A stretch of DNA of 64,000 bases from a virus, in IMG/VR virus record IMGVR_UViG_3300045391_000822, positions 91,599-155,598 of that record. The stretch is one strand, 5' to 3'. Shown here one piece after another: positions 7,686-24,574 of the stretch. A program made the translations under genes and the position numbers. Below the pieces are notes generated by a model. It did not search any database. It was not told where the DNA came from and saw only the letters and a list, made by a program, of their open reading frames with translations. Positions within the stretch are counted from its first letter, which is position 1. Each line of letters opens with the position of its first letter.

Positions 7686-8360
7686 CTAGTCCACAGTAGA
7701 CATATTCCGTTGGAAGAACCGTGTCTTCATTGCGCTTTCAAAAGGTAGAATCGATGCTGAACGCCATACATCTTTGATTGCAGAAGACCTACCTATGAGG
7801 ATCAACAGGTTATGGGATTCACGTATATCCTCGTACTGAGATACGACCTCGGCAGGCACTTCATAGATATCCTTGCCTTGGACGTAGATGAATCGCGTTT
7901 CGTATTTCTGCGATAAGGATTGCCACAGCCTGTTAGCGGCAGGAGTTTGGAGTCCACTAGACAGGAAACAAACGTCACTGTCCAACGCCCATTGGTATAG
8001 GCTCTTAGCAATGCCGCGCCCTTGGTACTCTAGAGATACTGCCATATGTGGTGTCCATACCTTTCCTCGGAGTAGGGCAGTGCCAGGTTCTAACTCTAGT
8101 ATGGTGACCACGTTGGTTGTACCGGGTTCAGCAAGATAGACGAATTTCGATTTACGGGAATCTCCGTCTAGCTTCCGATCGAACGCGTAAAGGTCTAGTC
8201 CTTGGATTTCAGTAGTAGGTGCAGGCTTAGGATTCAATCTTGCCAGGGCAGAAGACGCCTTTCTCAGGTCTTTCAACACCGACCAATTCGATTTCCAGGG
8301 ACCGATTTCGATAGCATCGATTTCAGTTACGGCTAGAACGCGTTCAGCTATTGCGCTCAT
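7686..8360 (-). CDS. GNAT-family acetyltransferase-like protein with shared N-terminal tag
   Basis: AVSLEYQGRGIAKSLY = GNAT motif A (QxxGxA); QTPAANRLW; begins MSAIAERVLA. Confidence 0.65.
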   Translation of the reverse strand: MSAIAERVLAVTEIDAIEIGPWKSNWSVLKDLRKASSALARLNPKPAPTTEIQGLDLYAFDRKLDGDSRKSKFVYLAEPGTTNVVTILELEPGTALLRGKVWTPHMAVSLEYQGRGIAKSLYQWALDSDVCFLSSGLQTPAANRLWQSLSQKYETRFIYVQGKDIYEVPAEVVSQYEDIRESHNLLILIGRSSAIKDVWRSASILPFESAMKTRFFQRNMSTVD

Positions 8361-8410
8361 TGGTGTTCCTTTTTCTTCTTAGTTAAGTCACCGACATGCG
8401 ATGTACTACT

Positions 8411-8725
8411 CTAATGATGCTCACGCCCTCGTAGGTGCGCGTGTCTCGCATCGTGGTGGCCTCGACATAGGCACATCAGATTCGATAATGCGTTCCGACC
8501 ACCACGACTTAATGGTACTATGTGGTGCACCTCTACCGCAGGTGATGTACAGCCTCGGTGCTCACATCTGTTACCAGCCCTCTTCATAGCCTGCGCACGT
8601 AAGTCCCACCATGCACCTGCTTTAGTTTGGCCACCAACGGTGTTGTACGCGGAGAAGTTCATCCTACGGTAGGTACCACTATGTGCGGTTCGAGCACTCT
8701 TAGCTCTAGGTGCACCACGTGCCAT
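8411..8725 (-). CDS. small HNH endonuclease
   Basis: CEHRGC...EVHHIVPLSRGGRNALSNLMCLCRGHHDARH. Confidence 0.9.
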   Translation of the reverse strand: MARGAPRAKSARTAHSGTYRRMNFSAYNTVGGQTKAGAWWDLRAQAMKRAGNRCEHRGCTSPAVEVHHIVPLSRGGRNALSNLMCLCRGHHDARHAHLRGREHH

Positions 8726-10068
8726 TACTGTTCCTTCGTATCTTGTTTCTCTGCGAGGTGCTTAACTATCAGTTCGATCTGTTCGTCACTAAGTTGAGCA
8801 GTCTTCAGGTGCTCCGCCCAGGCGCTTATCAGCTTCTCCAACATCTTTGTATCACCGTCTTCTACGGAAGCATTCAGCTCCGCAGATGAGAAGATGGACT
8901 TAGCAGCACCACTCAGAAACTTCAGGAAGTCCGATGCCATTACCAATCCAATAAGAGGCAGGACTGGACCTGAAGCACCAACCAACGCAAGAGCACAGGC
9001 AATGGCTAAGCCTTTACCGAAGGACTTCACAGCCTTAGCTGTACCCTTGGTAAGTTTCTTACCAGCCTTCAGGTTCTTCATCGCTCCCTTAGTTTCCCGC
9101 CAGTTGTCATCATCCCAATCATCGTCGTCCATAAGATCTTTAGCGATCTTTTTCTTATTCGACTTGAGCTTATCTGACCCGGCTGTTCGTGCCTTACTAC
9201 CAGCATCGGCACCACCGTTCTTGAAGAATGATTTCTCTGTACCGCTGAGCTTCTGAAAGAAACGTTGAAGCTTCTTAGCTAAACGATCAGTGAACGTCCG
9301 TTTGAAGAAGTGTCGACCTGGAGCTATCGAATCACCATACTTATCGAGGAGTTCGTTCTCTTCCCCAATCAGTTTTTCCTTGGTAGCAGGATCAGCCTTC
9401 TTCTGCTTCTTACGAAGTTCTGCTATTCGTTCACGTGCCTCTAGTTCATCTGAAGACAGGTCTTCATCATCTAAGGTGTGCTCTTCGTATTCAGTGTCGT
9501 CAGGTACCCAGCCTTCGTCAGTACTGAATCCTTCACGGTCTTTCAAATGGTCAGGATCATCACGAGGACCTGAATCCTTAGGTCCGTCCTTGGTTAGAGT
9601 ACGTACCGCCTTAGGATGTTTCTCCATCAAGTCCCGGTACTTCAATTCAGCTTCGTCTGCTGCGTCTTCCCATTTGCGTTTCTTCTTCGGATCCTTTTCC
9701 TTATCAGCACGAGCCTGGAACTCATTCTGTAGGTCAAGGAGATCGTCCATATCGGATCGAGCTTCCTTCTCTTCGTCAGAGAGGTTCTTCTTATCCTGGG
9801 GCAATGCTTCATGGTCCCCTGGCTTGGTCAGAGGCTCATCGGCATCTTGCTCTTCTTGAGAGTCTTCTTGGGATTCATCGAAGTCCTCACCTGACTCGTC
9901 AAGATCCTTAGAGGGTTCTTCGGGATTCTCAGCTTCATCGTCTTCCGGATGGTCTGTCGCAGACTTACCATACTTGGAGCCTGGGTGCTCCTTCAGGTAT
10001 TTCTCCTGATGCCTCGAACTCAGTTCGTCCCACCAGTTGGTGGCTAACACACGGTTTGCAAAATCCAT
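8725..10068 (-). CDS. putative internal head/ejected protein with C-terminal hydrophobic hairpin
   Basis: MDFANRVLA tag, WW..Q..YL..HP.SKY motif, acidic linker, hydrophobic GLAIACALALVGASGPVLPLIGLVMA. Confidence 0.6.
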   Translation of the reverse strand: MDFANRVLATNWWDELSSRHQEKYLKEHPGSKYGKSATDHPEDDEAENPEEPSKDLDESGEDFDESQEDSQEEQDADEPLTKPGDHEALPQDKKNLSDEEKEARSDMDDLLDLQNEFQARADKEKDPKKKRKWEDAADEAELKYRDLMEKHPKAVRTLTKDGPKDSGPRDDPDHLKDREGFSTDEGWVPDDTEYEEHTLDDEDLSSDELEARERIAELRKKQKKADPATKEKLIGEENELLDKYGDSIAPGRHFFKRTFTDRLAKKLQRFFQKLSGTEKSFFKNGGADAGSKARTAGSDKLKSNKKKIAKDLMDDDDWDDDNWRETKGAMKNLKAGKKLTKGTAKAVKSFGKGLAIACALALVGASGPVLPLIGLVMASDFLKFLSGAAKSIFSSAELNASVEDGDTKMLEKLISAWAEHLKTAQLSDEQIELIVKHLAEKQDTKEQ

Positions 10069-10101
10069 TGTTCTACCTTTAGATTCTTATTCTAAACTGG
10101 G

Positions 10102-10773
10102 CTACCAACCAGCATGCTCTGGATCTAGAGCAGGAATAGCTTTCCGCTTGAACGGGTTAACCGACATCACTATAGTCGTTCGCCATTCTGGACCCCACGG
10201 CTTGTTATTCCTATACCAGGTCTGGATATCCTTATCCCAGTAGTTCCAGATCTTCCAGCCCAGGTTGTAGCTACCCCACTTACCGTCAAGCGAGATGTTC
10301 CAATATCCCTTGCTAGAAGTGGCGATAAACAAACCATAGCCAGTACCTGTATCACCTGGTACCCACTTGAATTTATTGATCGCCCATTCCGATTTATCAA
10401 CCGGTATACCTAGAACGTAGTAGGAGAACGAGTATCCTGAGTTCCGATTAAGCCATCGCCATTGGTAGTATTTGCGTTTCCAGTAGCTAGGTAGATTAGT
10501 TGGACTGTAGGTGTCCCTATCCACGAAGTATGGACTAGTCCAACCTGTATCCAATGAAGCATCAAACGTCTCGAACCATTTGAACGCCGTAGGTAGGTCT
10601 TCAACTATGCCACGCCATTTTGCATCTAGCTTATCGTAGAGCCAAGTGCCTTGGGGAACTGGTCGAGCAAGAAAGATGATCCACCAATTAACCAGGAGTA
10701 CGCACACCAGGTTGAACACGAAGTCCAGGGGCCACAGGAGCATCCACTTCAACGTCTGTAGAAAGTATTTCAT
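10102..10773 (-). CDS. Trp-rich phage membrane protein
   Basis: N-terminal TM; WFETFDASLD and WRWLNRNSGYSF motifs typical of a phage hypothetical family. Confidence 0.6.
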   Translation of the reverse strand: MKYFLQTLKWMLLWPLDFVFNLVCVLLVNWWIIFLARPVPQGTWLYDKLDAKWRGIVEDLPTAFKWFETFDASLDTGWTSPYFVDRDTYSPTNLPSYWKRKYYQWRWLNRNSGYSFSYYVLGIPVDKSEWAINKFKWVPGDTGTGYGLFIATSSKGYWNISLDGKWGSYNLGWKIWNYWDKDIQTWYRNNKPWGPEWRTTIVMSVNPFKRKAIPALDPEHAGW

Positions 10774-10974
10774 TTAGTCCTCTTCTCGACAGTCCATCAC
10801 ATCATCATCTTCAAGTGGTGCTCCACAAGGCTTCTGTCCTGAGTTCTGCCTTGAGTTCTTAGTTCTTTGGCAGAGCCTATTCCACTCGATGACTATTTCA
10901 TCTATTAACTTCTGGTGTTCATCAGATACTTCGGGAGTAGGAACCTGCAGGTTGGTCATCAACACCTCGAACAT
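10774..10974 (-). CDS. hypothetical protein
   Basis: 66-aa ORF abutting the downstream gene. Confidence 0.4.
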   Translation of the reverse strand: MFEVLMTNLQVPTPEVSDEHQKLIDEIVIEWNRLCQRTKNSRQNSGQKPCGAPLEDDDVMDCREED

Positions 10975-11003
10975 CTAAGAATACATCGAACTAGCACCGT
11001 CAG

Positions 11004-11066
11004 CCTACCTAGAGATCCTACAGAATAGGGCTAAGAGGCTAGGGGTTGAAATTGGTTAGGAGCTCA
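11004..11066. repeat. intergenic repeated element, copy 1
   Basis: CCTACCTAGA-N8-AGAATAGGGCTAAGAGG identical, with the same spacing, to 21555-21589; similarity continues about 25 bp. Confidence 0.75.
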
Positions 11067-11108
11067 TTTCCTGTACTGTCAGAAGGATCTATAGACTTAC
11101 AAGAGGTC

Positions 11109-11843
11109 CTAACTCTTCCGTAGAATACGGTTTGCAGTAGCCTTAGCTACGTTAGTCCCAGATAGCGTCTTTTGGGACGCCGCTTGTTTAGGTTCAATAG
11201 GTTGCACTGGTTCCACAGGTTCGATTGGATCTACAGGCGCCTGCGGTTGCTCACCTTTAGGCAACTCTGGTAGACCGTTACCAGAAGTAGCACCAGTCTT
11301 AATCCTACGGACTACACGACTCTTGAGGAACTCAGCTTCAATTTCCTTGAATAGCTCAGGAGCCCATTCAGTGGCATCTTGCATTTCCGTAGGTGAAGAG
11401 CCTTGGCCCATCGCATCCGGAGAAACAGAACTGTAGATAGTGTCGTCACCGTGTACCACTTCTTCTACAGGATCAGGACGGTCAATAACGCCAGGCGTAT
11501 TCTCCTCATCCTGTGTATCGTATGTGTCAGGAGCACCACCTTCGCCAGGGTCCAGGTCTGGTGCATCATCACCTTGACTGGTATTCAAGTCAGAGGCACC
11601 GATTCTTGAGGCCCGGATATCACGTAATGCAAAGTAGGCAGCAACACGAGTTACTGCTGCCGTTACCAACGGATTCTTGTCTGCTGATGACGTCATCTTC
11701 TGGTAGATGTAGTTGGTGAGCGCCCAATTCTGTTCGCCTTTATCTTTACCAGCTGCATCCTTGGCACGGTCCCATTTCTTTTCCAATTGCTTGGTACTAC
11801 CTTTGCCCTCTCGAGCATCCTTCTTAATCATCTGGTTAGGCAT
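11109..11843 (-). CDS. putative internal head protein (helical N-terminus, acidic low-complexity body)
   Basis: 244 aa; AGGAG RBS; C-terminal ATANRILRKS resembles the tag. Confidence 0.6.
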   Translation of the reverse strand: MPNQMIKKDAREGKGSTKQLEKKWDRAKDAAGKDKGEQNWALTNYIYQKMTSSADKNPLVTAAVTRVAAYFALRDIRASRIGASDLNTSQGDDAPDLDPGEGGAPDTYDTQDEENTPGVIDRPDPVEEVVHGDDTIYSSVSPDAMGQGSSPTEMQDATEWAPELFKEIEAEFLKSRVVRRIKTGATSGNGLPELPKGEQPQAPVDPIEPVEPVQPIEPKQAASQKTLSGTNVAKATANRILRKS

Positions 11844-11954
11844 GAGCCTCTCCTATGAATTGCCTACACAGAAACCCCACCCGAAGTTAATCGAATGGGG
11901 TTCCTTTACTTCATTGGATTCAACGGTAGTACAGGTTGTTAAAGAGCGAACCTC

Positions 11955-11983
11955 GAGATCTTCTAAGAATACTAGAAGATCTC
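11955..11983 (-). terminator. stem-loop after Ig-like gene
   Basis: 11-bp inverted repeat GAGATCTTCTA-N7-TAGAAGATCTC; a second imperfect hairpin at about 11873-11902. Confidence 0.5.
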
Positions 11984-11990
11984 CGGGGTC

Positions 11991-12986
11991 TTAGCTAACA
12001 GTCACTGTGTAGCCGCTGGAGGTCTTGCCGCCGAACGCAGCAGTGATGCTGGTCGTACCAGCAGCAACACCAGTAACCAAACCAGTGGCAGAGCCGACAG
12101 TAGCGTTAGCCGGAGTACCAGACACCCAGGTAGCTTGGGTGGTCACATCGGCCGTCAACGGAGCGATGTTGTAGTTCGCAGTTGCCGTCAGCTGAGTCGT
12201 GTTACCAACAGTGGTAGTGTTAGTACCGGTGATGGTAATGGTCTGGACAGCGCGGGCTGCGGTAACGGTGAACGCCGTTGGAGCGGAGGTCACGCTGTTC
12301 AACGAAGCAGTGATGTTGGCGGAACCAACAGCAACACCGGTTACGACACCAGTGGCAGCACCCACGGTAGCGGTGCCAGTAGCCGATGAAGCCCAGGCAG
12401 CAGTAGTCGTGATGTTCTGCGTAGTACCGTTACTGTAGTGGCCGGTGGCAGTCAGCGAAGACGTGGCGCCAACAGCAGCGGTTGCAGTACCCGTAATGGT
12501 GATCGAGGTCAACACAGCAGCAGTAACTGTGACGTTATGTGCTGAGGAGGTAACGCTACCCACGGCAGCGGTAATCGAGCTAGAGCCGGTAGCAACACCA
12601 GTCACAACACCCGCAGCAACCGTAGCCGATGCAGTGGTTCCACTCACCCAGGTAGCACTCGACGTGATATCGGCAGTGCTATTGTCATCGTAGGTGCCGG
12701 TAGCGACAAGCGTAACCGTTTGACCAGCAGCAACCGTAGTAGCACCAGTCACTGCGATAGACACAAGCACTTTCTCATCTGTGGGTGATCCCGGGAAACC
12801 ATCAGGCAGAATATCTGCGTAGGCTTGGCCCATCGTGATAGTGCTGAGTTTCAAGGGGTAGTTCAGGCGTGCATATTGCACGTAGTACCATTGATCTTGG
12901 GCAGTCCAATTCGAACCGTTAGCAGACATGGTGTAACCAGCGGCACGCAGGTCGGCGCGAAGTTGGTCGTAATTGATTTGAGTCAT
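11991..12986 (-). CDS. virion protein with three bacterial Ig-like (Big_2) domains
   Basis: Three ~85-aa repeats L.SI.ITG....VG.T..LTATG.Y...DIT..ATW.S...ATV...G.VTGVA.G...ITA. Confidence 0.85.
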   Translation of the reverse strand: MTQINYDQLRADLRAAGYTMSANGSNWTAQDQWYYVQYARLNYPLKLSTITMGQAYADILPDGFPGSPTDEKVLVSIAVTGATTVAAGQTVTLVATGTYDDNSTADITSSATWVSGTTASATVAAGVVTGVATGSSSITAAVGSVTSSAHNVTVTAAVLTSITITGTATAAVGATSSLTATGHYSNGTTQNITTTAAWASSATGTATVGAATGVVTGVAVGSANITASLNSVTSAPTAFTVTAARAVQTITITGTNTTTVGNTTQLTATANYNIAPLTADVTTQATWVSGTPANATVGSATGLVTGVAAGTTSITAAFGGKTSSGYTVTVS

Positions 12987-13065
12987 CTTGATCTCCGGAA
13001 GTAAAGGACTGGAGCACCCACCTTCTGTTGAGTAGAGTGGTATAACGGTGGGGCACTGCAGACAA

Positions 13066-13073
13066 TAAAATTG
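13066..13073 (-). promoter_or_regulatory. putative late promoter motif CAATTTTA
   Basis: Intergenic, 80 nt upstream of Ig-like gene start. Confidence 0.5.
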
Positions 13074-13109
13074 AGTTCTCTGGATACCTTGAGGTGTTCT
13101 AAGAGGAGT

Positions 13110-13610
13110 CTAGCAATGGTCTTTAAACGCTGGATCCTCTCGAAGACCCCTCATTATGTTCTCCGCACTAGGACCCTCTTGTTCTACAGTTTGCTGAACC
13201 CGCTTGTAGAGTTCTGCATCTATGATGTCCTCTAAGGATTCTAGGTCTAGGTGAACAACTTCGTGTTCGATCTGGATCTTTGCGTATCGGATCCACCATA
13301 GGTAGTGCTGGCGTATATCGAATTCCAGAAGAGTCAGAGGTGTTCCAAATAGGTCGAATACGATCTCTCGGAACACCTGGAAGTGACTACGTACCTGCTG
13401 TTCACCACAAGCCTGGTGGTCCAACATGAACACAGTGAGGGCCCTGCGAATAAGAAAGGTGTCTACTATATGGAAACGGGGTCCACTAGACATGAGTGTA
13501 TCTAGAAGTGCCTTGTATATCTTAATCCTCAGACGGAGCCCCTTGGATACCGCATCTGTGTAGAGCCCTAGGACAGTCTCGGTTGCCAAAGCAGTTCCTA
13601 CGATAGACAT
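13110..13610 (-). CDS. hypothetical protein
   Basis: 166 aa, AAGGAG RBS. Confidence 0.7.
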   Translation of the reverse strand: MSIVGTALATETVLGLYTDAVSKGLRLRIKIYKALLDTLMSSGPRFHIVDTFLIRRALTVFMLDHQACGEQQVRSHFQVFREIVFDLFGTPLTLLEFDIRQHYLWWIRYAKIQIEHEVVHLDLESLEDIIDAELYKRVQQTVEQEGPSAENIMRGLREDPAFKDHC

Positions 13611-13661
13611 GGCTACTCCTTTTCCCAGGACCTAACTACTCGAAGAGACTATTCGAAGAAG

Positions 13662-14261
13662 CTATTCAATAGCCTGACTAGATTTGAAGTCAAATGGTGC
13701 AGCATATGGCTCCCATTGCGTACCGAGGCCTTTGTGGAACCGAACCATCTGTGGATGGTCTCTACGGTTAGGAGCGAACACCTGTTGGTATCGTACCGCA
13801 AGAGCCTGACGTTCCGGCTGATCGGTATCCCGTATCTCCTTGTAGATCTGTCCGCGTAATGCTGCAACCTTCTCAGATAAGGCATAACCAGCAGACGATC
13901 GTCCTACGTCGAATGCTTGCTCCGCTTGGAATTCCAAGGCCCGAAGTTCCTGAACTAGTTGGTCTAGCTGAGTGGTATCGGTTACCTTGAGGTTCTTCAG
14001 CGAATAGGACCAACCGCTATTCGTAGCACGATCCCACACTGCGAGTTCCTGGTCACCTACGGTACACCGGATACCTTTAGAACACGTATCGTCTACAGGC
14101 ATCACCTGGTACTTCTTCTGGAACTGCACTTCCTGATCTCGAACAAACTGCTCCCATTCGGATTGGTCTCGAAACGTCACCTTAGGGAACCCACCTAGAT
14201 CGGGTATTCCTGTAGGTTCAGATAGAGCTAGAACAGCGTGTAGACGTTGAGCAAAATTCAT
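13662..14261 (-). CDS. hypothetical protein with variant N-terminal tag
   Basis: Begins MNFAQRLHAVLA. Confidence 0.65.
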   Translation of the reverse strand: MNFAQRLHAVLALSEPTGIPDLGGFPKVTFRDQSEWEQFVRDQEVQFQKKYQVMPVDDTCSKGIRCTVGDQELAVWDRATNSGWSYSLKNLKVTDTTQLDQLVQELRALEFQAEQAFDVGRSSAGYALSEKVAALRGQIYKEIRDTDQPERQALAVRYQQVFAPNRRDHPQMVRFHKGLGTQWEPYAAPFDFKSSQAIE

Positions 14262-14301
14262 ATAGTTCTCGATGTTCTTGATGGACTCAGTAGGTGTGAC
14301 A

Positions 14302-14333
14302 GGTGGTGTAGACGTGTCCTCGTCTACACCACC
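14302..14333 (-). terminator. stem-loop downstream of A1-like gene
   Basis: 13-bp perfect inverted repeat GGTGGTGTAGACG-N6-CGTCTACACCACC. Confidence 0.55.
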
Positions 14334-14366
14334 GGATTCCCCTAGTCTAGGCTATTAAGCTCTTTC

Positions 14367-16067
14367 TTAGGCTCTCCACTTACCATCCCACATGGTGACG
14401 ATAGCACGACTACCATTAGGATAGGTTACGATGTGGCTATGACTCCAGGACGAAGGACCCACGTTGTACCCCATATCTAGAGAGCCGCTAACGCCCGCGA
14501 CGTAAACACCATCGATAATACAGGCGCTATGCGAGTGTCCGATGTTGGCACGACGACCCATCTTAGATAGTGCAAGCGGTGTACCTTTCACACCGTTAGG
14601 GCCTAGGTGTCCGTGCATACCGCATTCGATACCCTCATCCTGTGATCGGCATATCACGAAGGACTCATCCTGACGTAGGAACTGTGCATCACATTGGGGA
14701 TCAGATTGCTGTACCGCCCATTCCACTACGTGATGAGATTCTGCTGCTTCTATCTGTCCGATTACATAGAGCTGAGCACTTAAGTAGAACTTGGCATTCA
14801 CGGGGTCGGTACGCCAATCCGTATCCTTCAACCAACGGAGTAGAGCGTTGTCATGGTTGGAATCAACCACCACAGTCTTACACCAGGATCTCGAACTCTC
14901 CTGCAGAAACTGTGCCACGCGTTCCACTTCTTGGGCAACCTTATCCTCACCATACATAGCGAGTTGGAATTGCTTATGAGGATCACGTCGATCATGGTGA
15001 TTGCGGGAGCGGAAATCCAGTAGGTCGTGCATGAACTGGTATTTCGGTTTAAGCACGTCTAGCATGCCGCCGGTAGCCCAGGCCATATCACGAACACGAG
15101 GATCTAACTGTGCGACGTGTACGTCACCCCAGGTAATGGCTTCGATCGGTGTACCTACGATAACCTCACCGTCTTTAACCATCACGTTCAGATCGTAGAT
15201 AGTACCAACCTGATCCGACACCAGCTGACGTACAAACCAGCGGCCAGCACTATCTACCTCTACGAGAAGGCCACCGTAGGAATGGTGATGTTCTGCACGC
15301 AACCCCGCTTTCTTCTGGATGTAGTTGATCTGGGTGATGGTGCCGGTAGTGTAGTTGAACTTGGTAGCCTCTGCCTTACCTGATGCAACGCTTTCCATAC
15401 TCAGCTTGGCATGGGGGAAGATACCACTCTTACGTCCGGTGTAGGTTTCGAAGCCAGACAGAGGACGAACAGCAGTAGGTATGGTGTTCATCCGACCACA
15501 CCAAATCAGACCTGGAGCGAGCTCCATATTCTGATCCGATTTCTCCAGAAGCGGTAGCACTAGAGGATCATACCACAGCTTCTGCTCGATACCCTTGAAG
15601 GTCTTGTTCTTAACCGCCATCGGACCGTAGGCGTTGGTGTTGTAGGAGTAGGACGCACACAGGATCTCCGCCTTGTAGTATTTGGCTAGAGCTGTGAGTG
15701 CTGCCCACACCTTCTTGTTAACCTTGGTGTTATTCTGCGCTGATGTGAGGATCCACCGACGTACAGCCTTACCGCGTGGTAAATCAATCTGCTCTATCTT
15801 GGTAGGACTTAGTTGTCCCTCTGCAATGGGTTTGTGGCCTTCTAAGCCTGCGCGTTTAACGTGACTACGAACAGTAGATCTAGAAAGACCTAGTGCGTCA
15901 GCGGTTGCTTGTGCGTTACCACCAAGGTTTAGGTACGCCTGTACCACCTCGGAATTGCGGTAGCCATGTTCGTGCTGATTTAGCTTTCGGTCCCGTGCTT
16001 CAGGAACAAATAGTTCGTGGCTATCTGCCTTTGAAGTCTTCGGTTGGAGGCTACGTTTCTTTCCCAT
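14367..16067 (-). CDS. T5 A1-like protein (N-terminal HTH plus metallophosphoesterase-type nuclease)
   Basis: Motifs ILTSAQNNT, NYIQKKAG, WFVRQL, GDVH, LKPKYQFMHD, SNHD, MHGH, GHSHS, GSLDMGYNVGPSSW match T5 A1 as I recall it; HTH TADALGLSRSTVRSH. Confidence 0.75.
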   Translation of the reverse strand: MGKKRSLQPKTSKADSHELFVPEARDRKLNQHEHGYRNSEVVQAYLNLGGNAQATADALGLSRSTVRSHVKRAGLEGHKPIAEGQLSPTKIEQIDLPRGKAVRRWILTSAQNNTKVNKKVWAALTALAKYYKAEILCASYSYNTNAYGPMAVKNKTFKGIEQKLWYDPLVLPLLEKSDQNMELAPGLIWCGRMNTIPTAVRPLSGFETYTGRKSGIFPHAKLSMESVASGKAEATKFNYTTGTITQINYIQKKAGLRAEHHHSYGGLLVEVDSAGRWFVRQLVSDQVGTIYDLNVMVKDGEVIVGTPIEAITWGDVHVAQLDPRVRDMAWATGGMLDVLKPKYQFMHDLLDFRSRNHHDRRDPHKQFQLAMYGEDKVAQEVERVAQFLQESSRSWCKTVVVDSNHDNALLRWLKDTDWRTDPVNAKFYLSAQLYVIGQIEAAESHHVVEWAVQQSDPQCDAQFLRQDESFVICRSQDEGIECGMHGHLGPNGVKGTPLALSKMGRRANIGHSHSACIIDGVYVAGVSGSLDMGYNVGPSSWSHSHIVTYPNGSRAIVTMWDGKWRA

Positions 16068-16153
16068 GGGATCATCCTATCGCACCTATGGAGGTGCTTA
16101 CCTCTATGCTCTGCCGATGAAAGGGTATCACCGGGACTATCTGGTGCTTCAGA

Positions 16154-16573: not shown

Positions 16574-16582
16574 AGCTACCTC

Positions 16583-16879
16583 TTACTTCTTGGGTTGTTT
16601 CTTAGGAAAGTAACGCTCTTCGTTAAGGCGGTGTTGAAGTTCAGGATCTGCTTCTTTCTCAAGACGTCGATACTCCTCGACCCACCGTTCTGGAGATAGG
16701 TCGTCTACTCGATAGGTGTGTACCGAGTTGTCAGGCCAGGTAGTGGCATCACCTACGAAGTAGTAATAGTCCTTACCTTTGACAAGCTTATCCTTGATGC
16801 CTGCCTGTCGAAGGGCCTTGTTGACGGTAGCAAGTGATGAGGTTACCAAGGAGGAAAGAACTCGTTCTGCGTAGGACAT
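16583..16879 (-). CDS. hypothetical protein with N-terminal tag
   Basis: Begins MSYAERVLSS. Confidence 0.7.
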   Translation of the reverse strand: MSYAERVLSSLVTSSLATVNKALRQAGIKDKLVKGKDYYYFVGDATTWPDNSVHTYRVDDLSPERWVEEYRRLEKEADPELQHRLNEERYFPKKQPKK

Positions 16880-16881
16880 GG

Positions 16882-17850
16882 TTACCCCTGATATTCAACA
16901 TTAACGATACGAGGCTTACCACGCCTAGCTGGCGTTATGGACACTACCCTATAAGAGCCGCCTCGATTGAGCAATATCTCTTCTTCCGACCTCACGGCAT
17001 GGCCGCCCTTCTTGAACTGGGAAAGTGAATCTACAGAAATAGCCTTGGATCCCTTCGGCACCTTGATGTTCAACATAGTGGGGCTATCACCGCGTACAAA
17101 ATTATCTGCGGTGTCCTCATCGGTAGACGTAGATAAGAAGGCATCGTCTTTGTAGGAATCACCGGGCTTTAGGTTAGCGAACCTATCCATATCGGTAGGG
17201 CCGACTCCCCGGAATACCTGGATGTCCTGAGTTGTGCTAGCCCTGCTAAAGGCGTCGTCCATCAACTTTACTGCCTTACGGTCTTCCTTAGACATGGAAG
17301 AACCAGTACGTAGTGCCTTGTTGACCCCCAGATACAGAGAACCAGTGTACTCATTTAGGGCTTGGCGTTCAGCATCGGATACATGGACTTCTGCGGCTTT
17401 ATGTGCCTCTGCACTCTTTGATACCCTTGAGATCTTACCTTTCTTCGGTTTAGCAGGAGCTGGTGACGGAGCCGTTTTCTTAGGTGGTGGAGAGTCCCGG
17501 GTTGGAGCAACTCTAGGACGCTCCTGAATAGGTTTCTCTTGAGATGGCGCTTTCTGCTGAGTGCTCATGTGCTTACGTATCTGATCCATAAGATCATCTG
17601 CACGCTTCTGATTCTCAAGAGTAAACGGAGCGTTGACCGTGTCCGTCCATTGCTTCTTCAGATCCTCTACACTAGGCTCTCCAGACTCCTTGGACTTCTT
17701 AGACGGTATATCACTATCCTTGCCACCTGTCCTGCCTGCATATTTAGAGTTGGGGTGCTTATCAAGGTAGTTCTTCTGTTGGATCTTAGATTTGTTGTTC
17801 CACCAATCAGCTAGAATACGCTCTGCGAATCCTCGAACTTCGTAGGACAT
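16882..17850 (-). CDS. VIP2/C3-like (R-S-E) ADP-ribosyltransferase with N-terminal tag
   Basis: YTGSLYLGVNKALR, VFRG, FLSTS, SEEEILL catalytic motifs; N-terminus GFAERILA then WW..HPNSKY. Confidence 0.85.
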   Translation of the reverse strand: MSYEVRGFAERILADWWNNKSKIQQKNYLDKHPNSKYAGRTGGKDSDIPSKKSKESGEPSVEDLKKQWTDTVNAPFTLENQKRADDLMDQIRKHMSTQQKAPSQEKPIQERPRVAPTRDSPPPKKTAPSPAPAKPKKGKISRVSKSAEAHKAAEVHVSDAERQALNEYTGSLYLGVNKALRTGSSMSKEDRKAVKLMDDAFSRASTTQDIQVFRGVGPTDMDRFANLKPGDSYKDDAFLSTSTDEDTADNFVRGDSPTMLNIKVPKGSKAISVDSLSQFKKGGHAVRSEEEILLNRGGSYRVVSITPARRGKPRIVNVEYQG

Positions 17851-17859
17851 GGCGGTTCC

Positions 17860-18258
17860 TTACTTCAGACCAGAGAAGGTAGCGATACTAAGATAGAGTA
17901 CTGTTCGCGCGCTCTCGGGTATGATGAACAACTTGGTGGCCCAACCGTCTGCATGGGAAGACATCTTAGGGTCCCAGGAGAGTAGGCGTTTCGTTCCTGC
18001 AGTGCCAGCAATAGGTGGATCTTGTCGACTCGGTGTAGCAGCCTTAAACTTCAGGGCACGCTGCAACTTCGATGCCACCTTCTTGGCCTCTTCTGGAGTC
18101 ATGCTGGCAATGAAGGCATGGGCGTCACGACCTACACCGTATTGAGGTTGCCATTTGACACCACTTACTTTGGTGACTTCGTCGATGACGCGGTGAATGG
18201 CATCTGCGCTAGCACCAGCTTCAACGATGTTGGCAAGAACGCGTTGTGCGAATGACAT
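17860..18258 (-). CDS. hypothetical protein with N-terminal tag
   Basis: Start moved to ATG 18258 (AAGGA RBS, removes overlap with 18261-18476); begins MSFAQRVLANIVEAG. Confidence 0.7.
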   Translation of the reverse strand: MSFAQRVLANIVEAGASADAIHRVIDEVTKVSGVKWQPQYGVGRDAHAFIASMTPEEAKKVASKLQRALKFKAATPSRQDPPIAGTAGTKRLLSWDPKMSSHADGWATKLFIIPESARTVLYLSIATFSGLK

Positions 18259-18260
18259 GG

Positions 18261-18476
18261 TTATTCCTTGGTATCTCTGGATGACGGACCGAACAGAAGA
18301 CCTACCACAATGCAGAGTACGATCGTCCACATGAAGTAAGAAGCTGCTGCAGGATTGGGATTCAGGTAATCCAAGCCGTATAGGTAACCGTAGACGAGGC
18401 GAATCAAGAATGTCACTATCATCGCCCGCCAGGTACCTACTCGGTAGTCCAGTATATGGTTGAGTAGATTTCTCAT
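18261..18476 (-). CDS. small two-TM protein (possible holin)
   Basis: 71 aa, two TM segments, charged C-terminal tail SSRDTKE. Confidence 0.45.
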   Translation of the reverse strand: MRNLLNHILDYRVGTWRAMIVTFLIRLVYGYLYGLDYLNPNPAAASYFMWTIVLCIVVGLLFGPSSRDTKE

Positions 18477-18489
18477 CTTATGCTTCTAT

Positions 18490-20025
18490 CTAGATGATCT
18501 TGGCGTAGACGCCACCTAGGATTGTGCCTTGGTAACGGTTGTAGACTGTGGCAGGAGAGATCGCAATACCAACCGAACCCATAGCACCGAACTGCAGAGC
18601 ACGGGGATCGCCACTACCATCACCAGTATCGTTACCCTTGATGATCAGGTTACGCTTGATGTTCGGGAGTTCGTTATCGAGGCGGGACTGGATCTTCGAT
18701 GCCATGTTGTCCAGGTAGGAAGTCTTCTCTACCGTTAATGAAATTGCCTGCCCACTGAACTCGAAAGCCTTCTCACCTTCTGCCAGGTACTGGGATTCAA
18801 TAGCGTAGAGCTCTGCTATGAGTAGCCAATACTCTCGCATCGGCCCGGTAGGGTTAGTGAACGTGATGTTCGAGAATTGCCCACCCCACATATTGAACGC
18901 ATCAGCAGCACGACGTAGCCAGGTGAGGATCGTCGCTTCAGGGAACAGAAGATCAGTAGCACCGTAAAGGGTGGTGCGGGCCTTGTTGATCTTCGCCTTC
19001 ACATCTGCGATAGCCAACGACATGCTAGGCAGGATCACCCAGAAGTCCGCACGCTCCGAGTACACCATTGAGGGCAGGTTCTGGTTCCAATACTTCCAAA
19101 CCATAGTCCACGGTTTGATGTAAGGCATAGTCATCGTAGACGTGTCTATCACGGCCGCGTAATACCAACCAGCGGCTACCCTATCAGGGCCTTGCGTTGC
19201 CGACATACCAGGAGTCATTACCTGAGTTGATCCGACCAGGGTATCATCCCAGTAGATCTCCAGAGTCACGTTATCGTAGAGCTTCTCCGTAACCAGGTAC
19301 ACGTTCGCAGATGTACCTTTCAGCTCTACCGATGGTGCTGCACCTACCGGCACCGTAGCCAAACCAGTAACCCGGAGGCCCTCGAAGTTGTAGAACTTCT
19401 GGAGGTTCGGGAGCGTCAAGGTCCACCGTATCTGGTAGGATTGGCCTTCCAACGTGGGTGGTACATTCGACGGTACGTTGATCAACGCCCTACCTAGAGC
19501 AGTGTTCGAGAACCCCGTACTCTGTACCTTATATTCATAGCAGGTACCGCTGGCGTATATCGTACCATCCGTGGTAATCAGTTCCCAGGTCATCGAGCCA
19601 CCTGCGGGGTCAACACCTGGTTCGAAAGCAAACACGCCGGTGCCTACTGCTGAACCTCCGGCGTCTAGAGAACCTACCAAGTCCTGGAACGCATCGGGGT
19701 TCTGTATGGTAAATGGTACTGCCTGTTGCGTCGCCTCTAACACCTGGGATACCAGGATTGCCGAGTAGGCCCTCGCGTTGGTATTGATTGTCAGGGGTAC
19801 CGCATAAGTGATACCGGCAGTTCCACCAGCTATGCCTACGTCTTGTACGCCTTGGGTGATAGCACCAGGCGTAACCGATATTGGTGGGGTAGTGGTAGGG
19901 GCTACCGTTCCGTAGGTGACTCCTGTTATGGTCTCACCTGAGGTGATCACCGAGTTCAGGTTTATCTGTACGGTAGTTGAGGCCCCTGCGTCTTTCGTAA
20001 AGATGAATGTCTTCGCCATCTTCAT
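18490..20025 (-). CDS. virion structural protein, possible neck/head-tail adaptor
   Basis: Beta-sandwich N-terminal domains, helical C-terminus with FEFSGQAISLTVEK..YL pattern like adaptor proteins; probable start ATG 20019. Confidence 0.5.
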   Translation of the reverse strand: MKMAKTFIFTKDAGASTTVQINLNSVITSGETITGVTYGTVAPTTTPPISVTPGAITQGVQDVGIAGGTAGITYAVPLTINTNARAYSAILVSQVLEATQQAVPFTIQNPDAFQDLVGSLDAGGSAVGTGVFAFEPGVDPAGGSMTWELITTDGTIYASGTCYEYKVQSTGFSNTALGRALINVPSNVPPTLEGQSYQIRWTLTLPNLQKFYNFEGLRVTGLATVPVGAAPSVELKGTSANVYLVTEKLYDNVTLEIYWDDTLVGSTQVMTPGMSATQGPDRVAAGWYYAAVIDTSTMTMPYIKPWTMVWKYWNQNLPSMVYSERADFWVILPSMSLAIADVKAKINKARTTLYGATDLLFPEATILTWLRRAADAFNMWGGQFSNITFTNPTGPMREYWLLIAELYAIESQYLAEGEKAFEFSGQAISLTVEKTSYLDNMASKIQSRLDNELPNIKRNLIIKGNDTGDGSGDPRALQFGAMGSVGIAISPATVYNRYQGTILGGVYAKII

Positions 20026-20030
20026 TCCTT

Positions 20031-21461
20031 TTATTTCGAGGCCTTGAAGTGTGCCTTCAACAGGACCACCGCTTCTGCCAGTGCTGCCTTTTCTGCAGGA
20101 TCCAATTGCTCTTCCAGCCTAGCTGCTTCTCGCCTTGCCATAGCCTGTATTACCAGTTGTGCATTGACCGACAACGTCTTACCATTCAGGGACGCAGTCG
20201 TCACTTCCAGGTGTCCGTCTTTCCGAAGTTGCACCGATTGGTCTAGTCCAGTGTGGTCTATCGGCTTCACCCATATCTTGCCTTTCTTACGGAAATGATC
20301 CGTCCTCAACACCCGGTCTAACAACTCCAACCTATCTTTGGGCACCGGAGCTTTCGACACCCGTGTGAAGTAACCAGTCTGCTTGAACTCCAACCGAGTG
20401 ACCTTACTCAGGAAATGAGTAGTCTCATCTACCGTGTTCAGCATCAACTCACCTCGGTCTGCCGCGCCTTCATCATACTCTGTAGGCTTACCGAACTTGC
20501 GTTCCAGGTTCTCTAATGCCATAGGAGAAGCCATCGACGGTGCGTTCACTCCAGACTGGGAAGGGTCTTCGTGTCCTTCCATTTCAGGATCACCAGGAGC
20601 TAGACGATCGCGTGTCACCGCAAAGCCGGGAGCAATATCTGGTGTTATCGACTCCTCGGTCATTCCAGTACCAACACCAGTCATCTCCGCGTCTTCTGGT
20701 TGACCGTTGAAGTCCTTGCCAAGGAAGTCCATCGAGGAAAGGACCCGCATAGCCGCTTCCGACTTTCCAGGAGACTGAGGTGCTTCTATCTCGTGGGACT
20801 CATCCGGCTTCTTCTGTGATGGGGCTTCATGCTTTTCCTGGCCCTCCCCATCATCATTGGTCTTCGGTTTCTTGGGAGGTGGCTCGTGTTTAACCGCCTC
20901 TTTGTCTGGACCTTCTTCTCCGCTCTTCTGGTCTTCAGCCGGCTTCTCATCTGCCGTAGAATCATCAGCAGAGCCACCAGCTCCAGATCCTCCATCCTCT
21001 TGTTCACCCTTGATATACCAGGAGCCATCAAGGCGTATCGCTTCGTAGGATTTACCATTGAAGGAGAAACTAGCGGTGCCTAGTAGACTGTTAATCCCAT
21101 CTAGCTCTTCTGCATCTAGTGCAGGCATACCGGTGATGTCAGATGTCTTCTTTGAGTACTCTTCTACCTGATCCTTATCAGAAGGTATTCCATCTGCAGG
21201 AACCTTAGAGTCATCTTGGAATCCATAGGAATCATGTTCTTCTTCGAATTCCTGTTCATCGGAAACCGGCTCTTCTCCACTAGACGAAGGATCTACCGAT
21301 GCAGGATCCGGTGTGGGGTTCGGCCCTGGAATCACGTCGATAGGATCATCATGTGGAACTGGTACCGCTTCTACCGATAAACCTAAGGTAGATAGGATAC
21401 GGTTACTCAGAGGGTTCGTGTTCTTGAGGTTCTTATTGAGGTTACCAACGGTGTACTTCAT
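20031..21461 (-). CDS. acidic low-complexity putative internal head/core protein
   Basis: D/E/P-rich; internal tag-like LSNRILST and AAMRVLSS; start moved to ATG 21461 (GGAG RBS). Confidence 0.6.
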   Translation of the reverse strand: MKYTVGNLNKNLKNTNPLSNRILSTLGLSVEAVPVPHDDPIDVIPGPNPTPDPASVDPSSSGEEPVSDEQEFEEEHDSYGFQDDSKVPADGIPSDKDQVEEYSKKTSDITGMPALDAEELDGINSLLGTASFSFNGKSYEAIRLDGSWYIKGEQEDGGSGAGGSADDSTADEKPAEDQKSGEEGPDKEAVKHEPPPKKPKTNDDGEGQEKHEAPSQKKPDESHEIEAPQSPGKSEAAMRVLSSMDFLGKDFNGQPEDAEMTGVGTGMTEESITPDIAPGFAVTRDRLAPGDPEMEGHEDPSQSGVNAPSMASPMALENLERKFGKPTEYDEGAADRGELMLNTVDETTHFLSKVTRLEFKQTGYFTRVSKAPVPKDRLELLDRVLRTDHFRKKGKIWVKPIDHTGLDQSVQLRKDGHLEVTTASLNGKTLSVNAQLVIQAMARREAARLEEQLDPAEKAALAEAVVLLKAHFKASK

Positions 21462-21554
21462 GTTCTTCTCCACCTATTGAAGGTGTTCTGTTCAGGAGTT
21501 CGGGAGCGGGTGGTGTATCTCGAAGTGGGGGTGTCCTAGAGATGGTGTGTTCAA

Positions 21555-21617
21555 CCTACCTAGAAAACCTTAAGAATAGGGCTAAGAGGAGTGGGGTGTA
21601 AAAGGGTTGGAATCCAT
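21555..21617. repeat. intergenic repeated element, copy 2
   Basis: Matches 11004-11066; overlaps a 9-bp inverted repeat GGTGTAAAA (21595) / TTTTACACC (21621). Confidence 0.75.
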
Positions 21618-21747
21618 TGGTTTTACACCTATAGAAAGTGATGTTAGGACCTCTGAAGACCCCACAGGATACCAGGAGACCAAATGTCTTCTAAACAGGC
21701 CCTTAAAATTCCACCTAACACGGAGTCCAGGTCTCCGGACCGGCCCC

Positions 21748-23544
21748 CTAAACATCTAGGTTTATCTTGTCTAGGAAACCACGTCGATCTACGTTGAACT
21801 GTAAACGTGCACCAGTATCTAAGATAACCTGGAATACCGAATCAGTGCCTTGACGTACAACCTGAGATGGCTTGTACGGACGCATCTTCAAGTTCGCCAT
21901 ACCTAGTGCAGCAACAAATGCCAAGAAGTTCACATCTGTAGAGAACGTAATAGCACCTTCCTGCTCGTCAATTAATGCACGTCCACGAGTGAACTTAAGA
22001 ACAGTCTTTACCATGATAGACCATGCTTTAGCATTAACTCGTTGGATACGTGATTTACGCTCCTCTTCAGCATCTGGTGTAGATTCTGAGTCCTTCGAAT
22101 CGGTCTTACCTATACCCGTAGAAGTCCTGTCCCTAGACCTATCTTCGCCTAGAACAGGAGATCCTTTATACACCGATCCAGTAGACTTAGCAGAGCTGGA
22201 ATTATAGCCAGAACGAATCTTAGCTTGTACGATCTCAAGGTTTGTCTCCATACCTACAGAAGAGGTTATGCCAGCACCGGGGGCACTAAGAGACTGGAAT
22301 AACTGTCCTTTCTCTTTAGGTGTAAGGCCCTGGATATCGGAGGTCTCACCTATGTCTGAGGTTGAATCTGTATCGTCATCACCCTCACCAGCACCCTCTG
22401 CGGAAACCTCTGAAGTATTATCCTCAGATTCACCTAAATCATAGGTGTATGGATCTTCTTCTAGTTCACCGTCAGAATTGATTTCTGTATGCCATTCGGT
22501 GCTATCTGGATCTAGTAGTTGTTCCCCCTCTTCTGGTGTTTCTAGAGAGGAATCTACTTCATCTGGAAACCCATGTTCTTGGTAGTATTCCAGTTGATCG
22601 CCGCAGGCTTCTACTCCGGTGTCTTTGGATTCCTTAGATTCTTTGTTGAGCTTGTTTGCATATGGATCACGTAGTAAGGACCCATCTACTCCTAATGGCG
22701 TTTGCATACTCTCACCGTTTTGTGGACGCATATCCGGAACTATTTGGTTACCCACTCCCATGCCTCTGCTGATATCATCCAACCCTAGGGCGCGGACTGA
22801 CCGGTTTTTACCACCCTTTTTAACCCCTGGAATAGCCCCATTTTCTGGAGTTAAGGACTGCTCGAAATCTTGTGATTCCTGGCCGGTGTCGGACTCTTCT
22901 GGTATTTGGAGCGCACCTTCTTCCGGATCCTCATCATCCTCGGACCCAAGGAGTAGCAGATCTTCCTCATCTACCGGAGGAACTAAGGGATCACCAGCAT
23001 CTCCAGCACCAGCGCCTTCTGGTCCTAGTTCTGGATATTCTAGATCAGGAGTAGGCTTAAGAGTAGGAGTAGAGGCATGTTCGCTAAGAGATGGCGTACC
23101 GCTGGTGGTTGAACCAGGAGAACCGATGTTGTTATCAGCGCGGGATGCATCATACAACTCGTTTAATTCCTGTTCGTCATCACCTGGATTTTCATCCATT
23201 GGATTGCTCATATTTCCTTCTCCTGGGCCGGTCTTAAGATTAACCCGCTCGGCGGTTGTTGAGACGGAGCTAGCGCCGGCAAAGGGTTCTGTTCCGATTG
23301 CTTGTGTTGGATCATCGGCTGAATCTGACGGCGCATCGTCCAAATCATTAGGGGTAGGTGACGTATCATCTGGAGATCCAGGAAGCCTAGGTAATTCGGT
23401 TATCTTCTGTTGAGGAACTACAGGATCAGGACGCAGGTTATTCTGCTGCGTCTTATCAGGGAATTGATAACCAGGTAGTTGTGGGCACTCGTTATCTGCC
23501 TGATCCTGTCGTGGAATGTCTGCTAGAATCTTTTTCTTAGACAT
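21748..23544 (-). CDS. highly acidic low-complexity putative internal head/scaffold-like protein
   Basis: About 600 aa, mostly D/E/S/P/G with a small folded C-terminal domain. Confidence 0.6.
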   Translation of the reverse strand: MSKKKILADIPRQDQADNECPQLPGYQFPDKTQQNNLRPDPVVPQQKITELPRLPGSPDDTSPTPNDLDDAPSDSADDPTQAIGTEPFAGASSVSTTAERVNLKTGPGEGNMSNPMDENPGDDEQELNELYDASRADNNIGSPGSTTSGTPSLSEHASTPTLKPTPDLEYPELGPEGAGAGDAGDPLVPPVDEEDLLLLGSEDDEDPEEGALQIPEESDTGQESQDFEQSLTPENGAIPGVKKGGKNRSVRALGLDDISRGMGVGNQIVPDMRPQNGESMQTPLGVDGSLLRDPYANKLNKESKESKDTGVEACGDQLEYYQEHGFPDEVDSSLETPEEGEQLLDPDSTEWHTEINSDGELEEDPYTYDLGESEDNTSEVSAEGAGEGDDDTDSTSDIGETSDIQGLTPKEKGQLFQSLSAPGAGITSSVGMETNLEIVQAKIRSGYNSSSAKSTGSVYKGSPVLGEDRSRDRTSTGIGKTDSKDSESTPDAEEERKSRIQRVNAKAWSIMVKTVLKFTRGRALIDEQEGAITFSTDVNFLAFVAALGMANLKMRPYKPSQVVRQGTDSVFQVILDTGARLQFNVDRRGFLDKINLDV

Positions 23545-23549
23545 CTGGA

Positions 23550-24170
23550 TTACCAACCTGAACGGCCTCGGCCTCCACGACGCTGGTCACGCTGACGTGG
23601 AGTCTTGGATCCTTCGTAGGCAGCTTCAAGAGTACCTTGTTCGCCTTGGTCTACCAATTCTGGTGTTTCCGAATCTGTGGCAACAAGAATACGAGATGCT
23701 ATGGTGCTGGCTTTCATTTGTTCACCGTCTTGCTGATGTTGTAGATCGTTCAATTCTTGTTGGAGTTCATCAGCCCAATCACGATCTCCAGTTCGTTTCG
23801 CATCCTGGAGTTGTTGGCGGATATTTTTGATTTGCTCATCTAATTTCGACGCCATAATCTTCTCCACGACGTGGTTGAATTGGCTGAAAAGGGAAGAGGC
23901 CGCTACGGTGTAGACGGCCCCTGTAGGACATGGGAATGAGGAACTATCTCCCAGGGGAGAACAGAAAATGCTATCCACTTCGCGTAGAGGATACACCAGA
24001 TAAGGTTCACCGTCGAGAATGATTGCCACGTCGTACAACACTTTCGATTCGTTGAACCCCACACCGACGATTTGACCGGGTATGGGGTCCACACCAGTAC
24101 CCAGGTTGAGTGTGCAGGCATCACCTATAGCCAATCGTGCAGGGAACACCTCTTTGGAGTGGATCTTCAT
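23550..24170 (-). CDS. hypothetical protein (beta-rich N-terminus, coiled coil, internal tag-like motif)
   Basis: 206 aa; internal MKASTIASRILVA. Confidence 0.6.
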   Translation of the reverse strand: MKIHSKEVFPARLAIGDACTLNLGTGVDPIPGQIVGVGFNESKVLYDVAIILDGEPYLVYPLREVDSIFCSPLGDSSSFPCPTGAVYTVAASSLFSQFNHVVEKIMASKLDEQIKNIRQQLQDAKRTGDRDWADELQQELNDLQHQQDGEQMKASTIASRILVATDSETPELVDQGEQGTLEAAYEGSKTPRQRDQRRGGRGRSGW

Positions 24171-24172
24171 TT

Positions 24173-24574
24173 CTATGCCTCTGGATTAGGAGGATTCTGC
24201 GACATGTAGATTTTCGCTGCACGGGAAAAGGCAGAAGCTAAAGCAGAGGTTACGTATTCCGATCGGGAGCGTATTGCCTTAGACAACAGCTCTGGAAAGG
24301 AGCTAGCCATAACCTTGTAATAGCCTTTCCCTTTGATTGGGAAACTAACGCCTAGGCGAGAGATTGTCATTCCGTAGGATGATATTTCTCGCAGCTGGTA
24401 GGAGTAATAAGATACCTGAAGCCCATCGAATTGCCAATGGGCTTCACGAGTTCCGTCTTTCGATGGCTGTTCACCTAGGACTTTACTCAATAGGTCAACG
24501 GTGTATTTGTGATTGTCTGCGGGGTTTGCTTTGATTTGTAGAGCGCTCAGAATACGTTGAGCAAGGTGCTGCAT
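24173..24574 (-). CDS. hypothetical protein with N-terminal tag
   Basis: Begins MQHLAQRILSALQIKA; GGAGAGG RBS. Confidence 0.7.
   Translation of the reverse strand: MQHLAQRILSALQIKANPADNHKYTVDLLSKVLGEQPSKDGTREAHWQFDGLQVSYYSYQLREISSYGMTISRLGVSFPIKGKGYYKVMASSFPELLSKAIRSRSEYVTSALASAFSRAAKIYMSQNPPNPEA

Follow-up and report, generated by a model that had tools for sequence, protein, structure and literature searches.

The internal proteins of bacteriophage T4 are diverse and have a capsid targeting sequence as their sole common part, by which they are guided to the scaffolding core and which is able to carry foreign proteins as well (PMC3012670); both IPII and IPIII start with MKTYQEFIAE (as read from NC_000866). 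In phage P1, the N-terminal 30 residues of DarB act as a head-packaging signal, and the Dar proteins are without an N-terminal consensus (PMC9024508). The propeptides of phage SPN3US are mostly 111–254 residues long (two are short, i.e., 20 and 24 residues) and are cut at A-x-E, with ca. 80% of the head proteins remaining uncut (PMC10052503). Here we describe a short N-terminal peptide (further referred to as the tag) that starts ten unrelated proteins of the phage in IMG/VR record IMGVR_UViG_3300045391_000822, nine of them encoded in the 64,000-nucleotide window analysed (positions 91,599 to 155,598, i.e., the final 64 kb of one phage contig of 155,598 bp; coordinates are those of the window unless marked as genome) and one elsewhere in the genome. 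Judging from the sequences and from a model of the head protease, the tag is probably a capsid-targeting propeptide of the T4 type, which would be removed after Ala by a protease of the gp21 fold and would serve a much larger cargo set than that of T4.

The tag (M-x-[FYIL]-A-[EQN]-R-[VIL]-[LIH]-[AS]) is a strictly N-terminal, peptide-level and modular label on unrelated proteins. A first-pass annotation of this stretch had reported nine proteins with nearly identical N-termini, and all nine were found as described, each start being preceded by a Shine-Dalgarno-like purine run; the tenth tagged open reading frame (ORF) was added from outside the window (Table 1). The range of 7686–24574 given for the feature in that annotation was too narrow, since tagged genes reach 32087 and 51315. 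The core regular expression [FYIL]A[EQN]R[VIL][LIH][AS] matched 10 times in 245 ORFs, every match beginning within residues 3–8, and had zero further matches in 311,192 six-frame residues. This compares with 0.03 matches expected from composition and a mean of 0.005 over 200 shuffles, and both the enrichment of the tag and its N-terminal specificity are strong. Since the expression was fitted to the data, a motif-free clustering of candidate N-termini was added, in which the tag group formed the sole cluster of more than three separate genes among 556 ATG starts preceded by a ribosome-binding site (RBS) and grouped by N-terminal similarity. This cluster also took in a 79-aa ORF from a non-structural region (genome 38111–38350) with the borderline tag-like start MRSFAYRQISS.

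Pairwise codon identity in the tag core amounted to 0.62, 0.91 and 0.41 at the first, second and third codon positions, respectively, next to 0.35 for the upstream DNA. Because identity is high at second positions and low at third positions and upstream, selection acts on the peptide, as had been surmised earlier from the differing codons. On the same third-position and upstream identities, an explanation by RNA-level features or DNA repeats was rejected. That the conserved start would be an RNA-level or translation-initiation feature raising expression is extremely unlikely: Lys or Ser is frequent at the second codon and the codons after it are Ala-rich, as such a feature might have it, but identity at synonymous positions is near background, the upstream DNA is not conserved beyond the RBS, and the invariant Arg-Leu-x-Ala would be left unexplained.

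A megablast of 10 kb of the sequence against phage records revealed no close DNA relatives, and the gene for the head–tail connector, which lies in the middle of the tagged cluster, served as the marker for fetching related loci. The best named relatives of the connector protein belong to Achromobacter phage Motura (49% identity), Burkholderia phages BcepSaruman, BcepSauron and BCSR5, and Ralstonia phage phiRSL1 (43%). Connector alignment yielded 48 IMG/VR loci, which were searched at a strict threshold with a position matrix derived from 52 tags that had been checked by hand. This search returned 214 tagged ORFs, corresponding to 173 non-redundant proteins and 98 body families as grouped by BLAST, with up to 15 tagged ORFs per 21-kb locus. 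When the matrix was stripped of its Met information, a Met was still located 5–9 residues upstream in 56% of 282 core matches, versus a background of 6%. Moreover, 205 of the 214 tagged ORFs had the same orientation as the connector gene.

By comparison with the clade consensus (M-K-[IL]-[NQE]-A-A-x-R-L-x-A-[TSA]), the tag of this phage (M-S-F-A-E-R-I-L-A) is a shortened local variant of one common to a large phiRSL1/Motura-like clade, and the extended tag MSYEVRGFAERILA on the ADP-ribosyltransferase bridges the local form to the phiRSL1 type. Specifically, Motura carries M-[EQI]-I-Q-A-A-x-R-L-x-A on ca. 15 genes around the connector gene, and phiRSL1 carries M-x-Y-x-I-x-A-A-x-x-R-L-x-[AG]-[ST] on ORF109 (NUDIX), 111, 120, 123, 124, 127 and 133. 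A DNA pattern for the exact tag had 6 matches in IMG/VR, of which 2 led to a 243-kb relative and the others were chance-like. This relative, whose capsid protein is 68% identical to that of our phage, displays the tags MNFATRVLAS, MNFASRLLGE, MNFTDRIMAN and MKTNFSTRILSN, and its DUF3175 orthologue starts with MRFAERILAE. No description of such a tag in the phiRSL1, Motura or Saruman group was found in the literature. In the sister Yoloswag/PaBG group, a different common start, MEIVVSLSA, was noticed on four proteins of 86–717 aa (Erwinia phage Yoloswag, L022, positions 2637, 3077, 8499 and 13057; PaBG, L069, gp86 and gp89). PaBG gp86 (MKVSFSLKGRLAS) looks intermediate between this start and the phiRSL1-type tag, and the start of the PaBG virion protein gp83 (MLIKINLLEAVAA) is just loosely tag-like and constitutes a weak lead.

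The proteins that bear the tag are diverse, and enzymes are frequent among their domains. A Pfam census of 150 tagged proteins from the relatives identified NUDIX (8 proteins), RNase_T exonuclease (4), GNAT (4–5), saccharopine dehydrogenase/homospermidine synthase-like (2; e.g., L034:1265–2599), DUF3175 (2), SprT-like (2), ATLF-like (2), zeta toxin kinase (1) and ribosome modulation factor (1) members, and gave no match for the remainder. The synthase-like proteins, the ribosome modulation factor and the zeta-toxin kinase are unexpected as candidate capsid cargo. The idea that all tagged proteins are paralogues was rejected, as the 98 body families include distinct known folds. For the DUF3175 cargo, an exhaustive HMMER search returned 200 homologues, most of which align from query residue 19 or from a later one; of the 149 homologues read, at least 19 carry the tag, in several lineage styles, and others begin at the conserved body, a few residues past the point where the tag ends. 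This family exists both with and without the tag, and the tag is in this sense modular.

At the variable tag positions, non-homologous cargo pairs had an identity of 0.333 within a locus versus 0.203 between loci, a difference reached in 0 of 300 permutations. Such likeness within a genome fits a shared, co-evolving receptor. The same likeness, together with the paralogue families that some of the cargo form, would also be expected if the shared gene starts were functionless remnants of duplications or of the recombination of cassettes at gene 5′ ends. We consider this very unlikely, given that third codon positions and upstream DNA are unconserved while second positions are nearly uniform, that the consensus has been kept across lineages whose connector proteins are just 36–52% identical, and that the tag sits on bodies of distinct known folds.

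The head maturation protease of this phage was modelled with AF2 from a 67-sequence alignment (predicted local distance difference test score, pLDDT, of 84.9). Its best solved match was T4 gp21 (5jbl_B; Z 9.9, root-mean-square deviation of 2.8 Å, 137 of 164 residues), with herpesvirus proteases well below (Z of ca. 5.5), and on this model the protease has a T4 gp21-like (assemblin) fold. Sequence searches against PDB (both single-sequence and profile) found nothing real, just designed Kelch repeats. Near its N-terminus the capsid protein has K-x-P-V-V-A followed by A or S in three of four aligned lineages (V-Q-A-A in Motura), and the putative scaffold has KVVA followed by A. Hydrophobic-x-Ala was likewise present near the N-terminus in 22 of 67 protease homologues, versus 10.2 ± 2.8 in shuffles. 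The tag end R-[IVL]-x-A (i.e., [IVL]-x-[AS]) matches this hydrophobic-x-Ala, and no Glu-type site was found at the tag end. These shared motifs suggest that the head protease cleaves after Ala. Furthermore, the start of the protease itself (MSYKITA) resembles the first half of the extended tag. Head proteins are processed in PaBG (PMC7412058), and since a mass loss of ca. 20% on maturation has been reported for that phage, a second cut further into the capsid protein is possible.

A gp21-fold protease and a tag ending like the N-terminal motifs of capsid protein, putative scaffold and protease might equally be found if the tag were a mere removable propeptide that keeps enzymes inactive until they are trimmed, entry into the head being governed by another feature. 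This is quite unlikely, since the tag has 7–11 conserved positions, far above the three at the capsid protein site, and a 9-residue tail is an improbable inhibitor of folds as unlike as ADP-ribosyltransferase, NUDIX and exonuclease. Because the protease works inside proheads, cleavage would in any case still imply location in the head.

A capsid-targeting propeptide would operate as follows. During head assembly, the tag would dock its protein to the scaffold core or to the inner shell of the prohead; the head protease would then cut after the terminal Ala or Ser of the tag (R-[IVL]-x-A|), and the trimmed enzymes would remain in the DNA-filled head and reach the host with the DNA. The putative payload includes an Alt-like ADP-ribosyltransferase, a GNAT-like protein and a DUF3175 protein in this phage, and NUDIX hydrolases, exonucleases, a zeta-toxin kinase and SprT-like proteases in the relatives. 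The capsid-packaging label proposed in the first-pass annotation is partly supported: it fits the gp21-like protease fold, the strictly N-terminal, modular and clade-wide tag, the likeness of tags within genomes, the hydrophobic-x-Ala end, the co-orientation with head genes and the effector-type cargo; it did not prove particular to this phage.

The placement of tagged genes bears on where their products go. All ten tagged genes of this phage lie in structural or late blocks, which comprise 81 of the 245 ORFs (hypergeometric P of ca. 1e-5 for block boundaries of our own drawing). This placement and the co-orientation in the relatives argue against the tag being an address or interaction label for a non-capsid partner, such as a phage or host chaperone, a membrane site, a phage-made compartment or a timed degradation machine. 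A short amphipathic N-terminal peptide that is homogenised per genome would fit any shared receptor, and the tagged genes that some relatives have among metabolic genes would suit such a label too. The tag is, however, too weakly hydrophobic for a Sec or Tat signal, and no gene for an alternative receptor or compartment was seen, although no systematic search for one was made; overall, we regard a non-capsid label as unlikely.

Several points do weigh against the capsid-targeting propeptide. The capsid location, cleavage and injection of the tagged proteins are all predicted from sequences and a protease model, the hydrophobic-x-Ala cut rule is drawn from a low-information motif, and the capsid protein has neither the Arg of the tag nor its upstream residues. 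In addition, the homogenisation of tags within genomes could also be explained by recombination at gene 5′ ends, and some relatives have tagged genes among metabolic genes (e.g., the NUDIX gene ORF109 of phiRSL1). Finally, tags are absent around the connector gene in 6 of the more distant related loci, and just 1–2 are present in several others. Since these distant loci also give no motif-free cluster, the tag-finding method does not yield tags everywhere.

Extended to the whole of the large and mostly uncultivated phiRSL1/Motura-like myophage clade, the proposal would be that one N-terminal address of 9–12 residues (M-K-[IL]-x-A-A-x-R-L-x-A) loads dozens of enzymes per genome for co-injection with the DNA, for which we see an even chance. 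The candidate cargo would then range over NUDIX hydrolases, exonucleases, acetyl- and ADP-ribosyl-transferases, a zeta-toxin kinase, proteases, a ribosome modulation factor and polyamine enzymes. If true, this would be the largest tag-defined injected proteome known, and sequence search alone would list the proteins injected ahead of gene expression. Functions in anti-defence and host takeover are concentrated among such injected proteins, and for most of the 98 cargo families no function is known. The tag would also provide a second portable protein-packaging tag besides that of T4, for phages of soil and plant-associated bacteria, and would carry the combination of targeting and trimming known from T4 over to a distant clade in which the cut seemingly falls after Ala, thereby yielding a cleavage rule.

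The tagged genes and the head genes are listed in Table 1; several genes outside the window were placed because Motura is syntenic with this phage. Six of the tagged proteins of this phage had no informative family match, and cargo 3 had neither a family nor an ESM Atlas match. The ADP-ribosyltransferase recognised in the first-pass annotation was upheld (cargo 5; Pfam ADPrib_exo_Tox, PF03496, E-value 2.4e-28; Alt-like phrog_802, E-value 5e-9), with the motifs of C3/Alt-like arginine ADP-ribosyltransferases intact (FRG at residue 213, STS at 240, EEE at 289). The GNAT assignment of cargo 1 proved weak (Pfam E-value 0.0013, below the cut-off). Homology of cargo 4 to phrog_9154 begins at residue 15, past the tag, and the start of cargo 6 lies inside a longer GTG ORF, yet with its own RBS. 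Cargo 2 has a hydrophobic, membrane-like segment close to its C-terminus, and cargo 8 lies downstream of the portal gene, with one gene in between.

Table 1. Tagged genes, proteins with tag-like internal copies, and head genes
Feature	Position	Strand	Remarks
Cargo 1, 224 aa, weak GNAT-like	7686..8360	-	tag MSAIAERVLA at 8331-8360
Cargo 2, 447 aa, acidic (isoelectric point, pI, 4.9)	8725..10068	-	tag MDFANRVLA at 10042-10068, then WW..YL..HP module
Cargo 3, 199 aa, no assigned family	13662..14261	-	variant tag MNFAQRLHAVLA at 14226-14261
Cargo 4, 98 aa	16583..16879	-	tag MSYAERVLS at 16853-16879
Cargo 5, 322-aa ADP-ribosyltransferase	16882..17850	-	extended tag MSYEVRGFAERILA at 17809-17850, then WW..YL..HP module
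Cargo 6, 132 aa, no assigned family	17860..18258	-	tag MSFAQRVLA at 18232-18258
Cargo 7, 133 aa, no assigned family	24173..24574	-	tag MQHLAQRILS at 24545-24574
Cargo 8, 139 aa, no assigned family	32087..32506	+	tag MSFAERIIA at 32087-32113
Cargo 9, 118 aa, DUF3175 body	50959..51315	-	tag MRSIAERILA at 51286-51315
Tenth tagged ORF	genome 61079-61402, outside window	-	start MNFAERILSS
Acidic 480-aa head-module protein	20031..21473	-	LSNRILS near N-terminus (21390-21410), internal AAMRVLS (20736-20756)
Acidic 206-aa protein	23550..24170	-	internal IASRILV (23682-23702)
Head-tail connector, 511 aa	18490..20025	-	phrog_17327, E-value 1.8e-66; centre of tagged cluster
Portal	29384..31312	+	N-terminal similarity to Motura gp147
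Major capsid protein	genome 66812-67894, outside window		placed by Motura synteny
Putative scaffold	genome 68704-70284, outside window		placed by Motura synteny
Head maturation protease	genome 70353-71132, outside window		phrog_18299, E-value 1.4e-75
Helicase-like protein, 1551 aa	genome 72137-76792, outside window		beside head genes

Internal copies of the tag had also been reported for acidic proteins. LSNRILS, AAMRVLS and IASRILV do exist (Table 1), as does TANRILR near the C-terminal end of the 11109–11843 product, but they are not significant alone, because the relaxed tag pattern also matches non-structural proteins, R-[IVL]-[LI]-x being too common for a statistical test. Those in the 480-aa and 206-aa acidic proteins are possible protease sites. 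The orthologues of the 206-aa protein have gene structures too different for the internal copies to be compared. The 11109–11843 product is a conserved protein of 244 aa (MPNQMIKKDAREGKGS...; homologues are found in phiRSL1 ORF112 and in IMG/VR loci) in which ANRILRK is located 7 residues from the C-terminus. Cargo 2, the 480-aa protein and the product of 21748–23556 are three large, very acidic (pI 4.2–4.9), low-complexity proteins among the head genes, and may be scaffold-like or internal head proteins.

In several cargo proteins the tag is directly followed by a second module of ca. 25 residues, which reads WW..LS...Q..YL..HP.SKY in cargo 2 and cargo 5, DQFRKWD...YL..HP in the 243-kb relative and TWAFYSKLG in Motura (loci L020:15844–16958 and L001:24856–28789). 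This module is without a Pfam match and may serve as a second element for docking or ejection. The N-terminus of the portal protein (MYTKNRIIG, 29384–29413; MLKNRVLG in Motura) is like the tag core R-[IV]-[IL] with a final Gly, and may constitute an additional protease site. At a distance of two genes from the head protease, an Acb1-like gene (genome 71547–72062, L003:11547–12062; Pfam PF23474, E-value 3.8e-17) directed against the cyclic-oligonucleotide-based antiphage signalling system (CBASS) was noticed, whose product starts with MKITAK, resembling the protease start and the first half of the clade tag. The PaBG proteome lists 14 abundant proteins and has a giant helicase-like protein in the virion (PMC7412058). 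Since this protein, gp202, is the counterpart of the 1551-aa helicase-like protein beside the head genes of our phage, the latter is perhaps packaged too.

Among the known packaging systems, the cargo-loading peptides of encapsulins are short, modular, usually C-terminal and uncleaved, and serve an HK97-fold shell without DNA. The tag would similarly be a short modular peptide for loading diverse enzymes into an HK97-fold shell, but it differs from these peptides in its N-terminal position, its presumed cleavage and the DNA in the shell, and has no sequence relation to them. Phages phiKZ and SPN3US (with the proteases gp175 and gp245, respectively) are, like this phage, large myophages with numerous internal head proteins and a protease related to gp21 (PMC10052503), but their propeptides have just the A-x-E motif in common, and not a leader. 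In P1, the N-terminal signal of DarB suffices to send proteins, a foreign reporter included, into the head for delivery to the host (PMC9024508), which is the task envisaged for the tag; where the Dar proteins have no common N-terminus, however, a single consensus is found here on many proteins.

In T4, the tag-bearing proteins are IPI, IPII, IPIII and Alt, which are trimmed by gp21. As in our phage, ca. 10 residues at the extreme N-terminus are shared by unrelated proteins, an ADP-ribosyltransferase among them; the head protease is of the gp21 fold in both phages, and the tag described here ends in a putative protease site. The layout of MKTYQEFIAE also resembles that of the extended forms MSYEVRGFAERILA and MAYEFVDRILAS, although this resemblance is loose and was judged by eye, the tag having no alignable similarity to the T4 sequence. 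Given a gp21-type protease and a similar layout, common descent with the T4 system is also conceivable, so that the independence from T4 that the first-pass annotation had assumed is not established. Packaging and trimming are established for T4, whereas the tag is known from sequences and a protease model, and the presumed cut falls after Ala or Ser, whereas T4 sites ([LI]-x-E) are cut after Glu. The two systems differ, finally, in the extent of their cargo, which is a handful of proteins in T4 as opposed to 10 genes in this phage, and up to 15 genes per 21 kb and 98 body families among its relatives.

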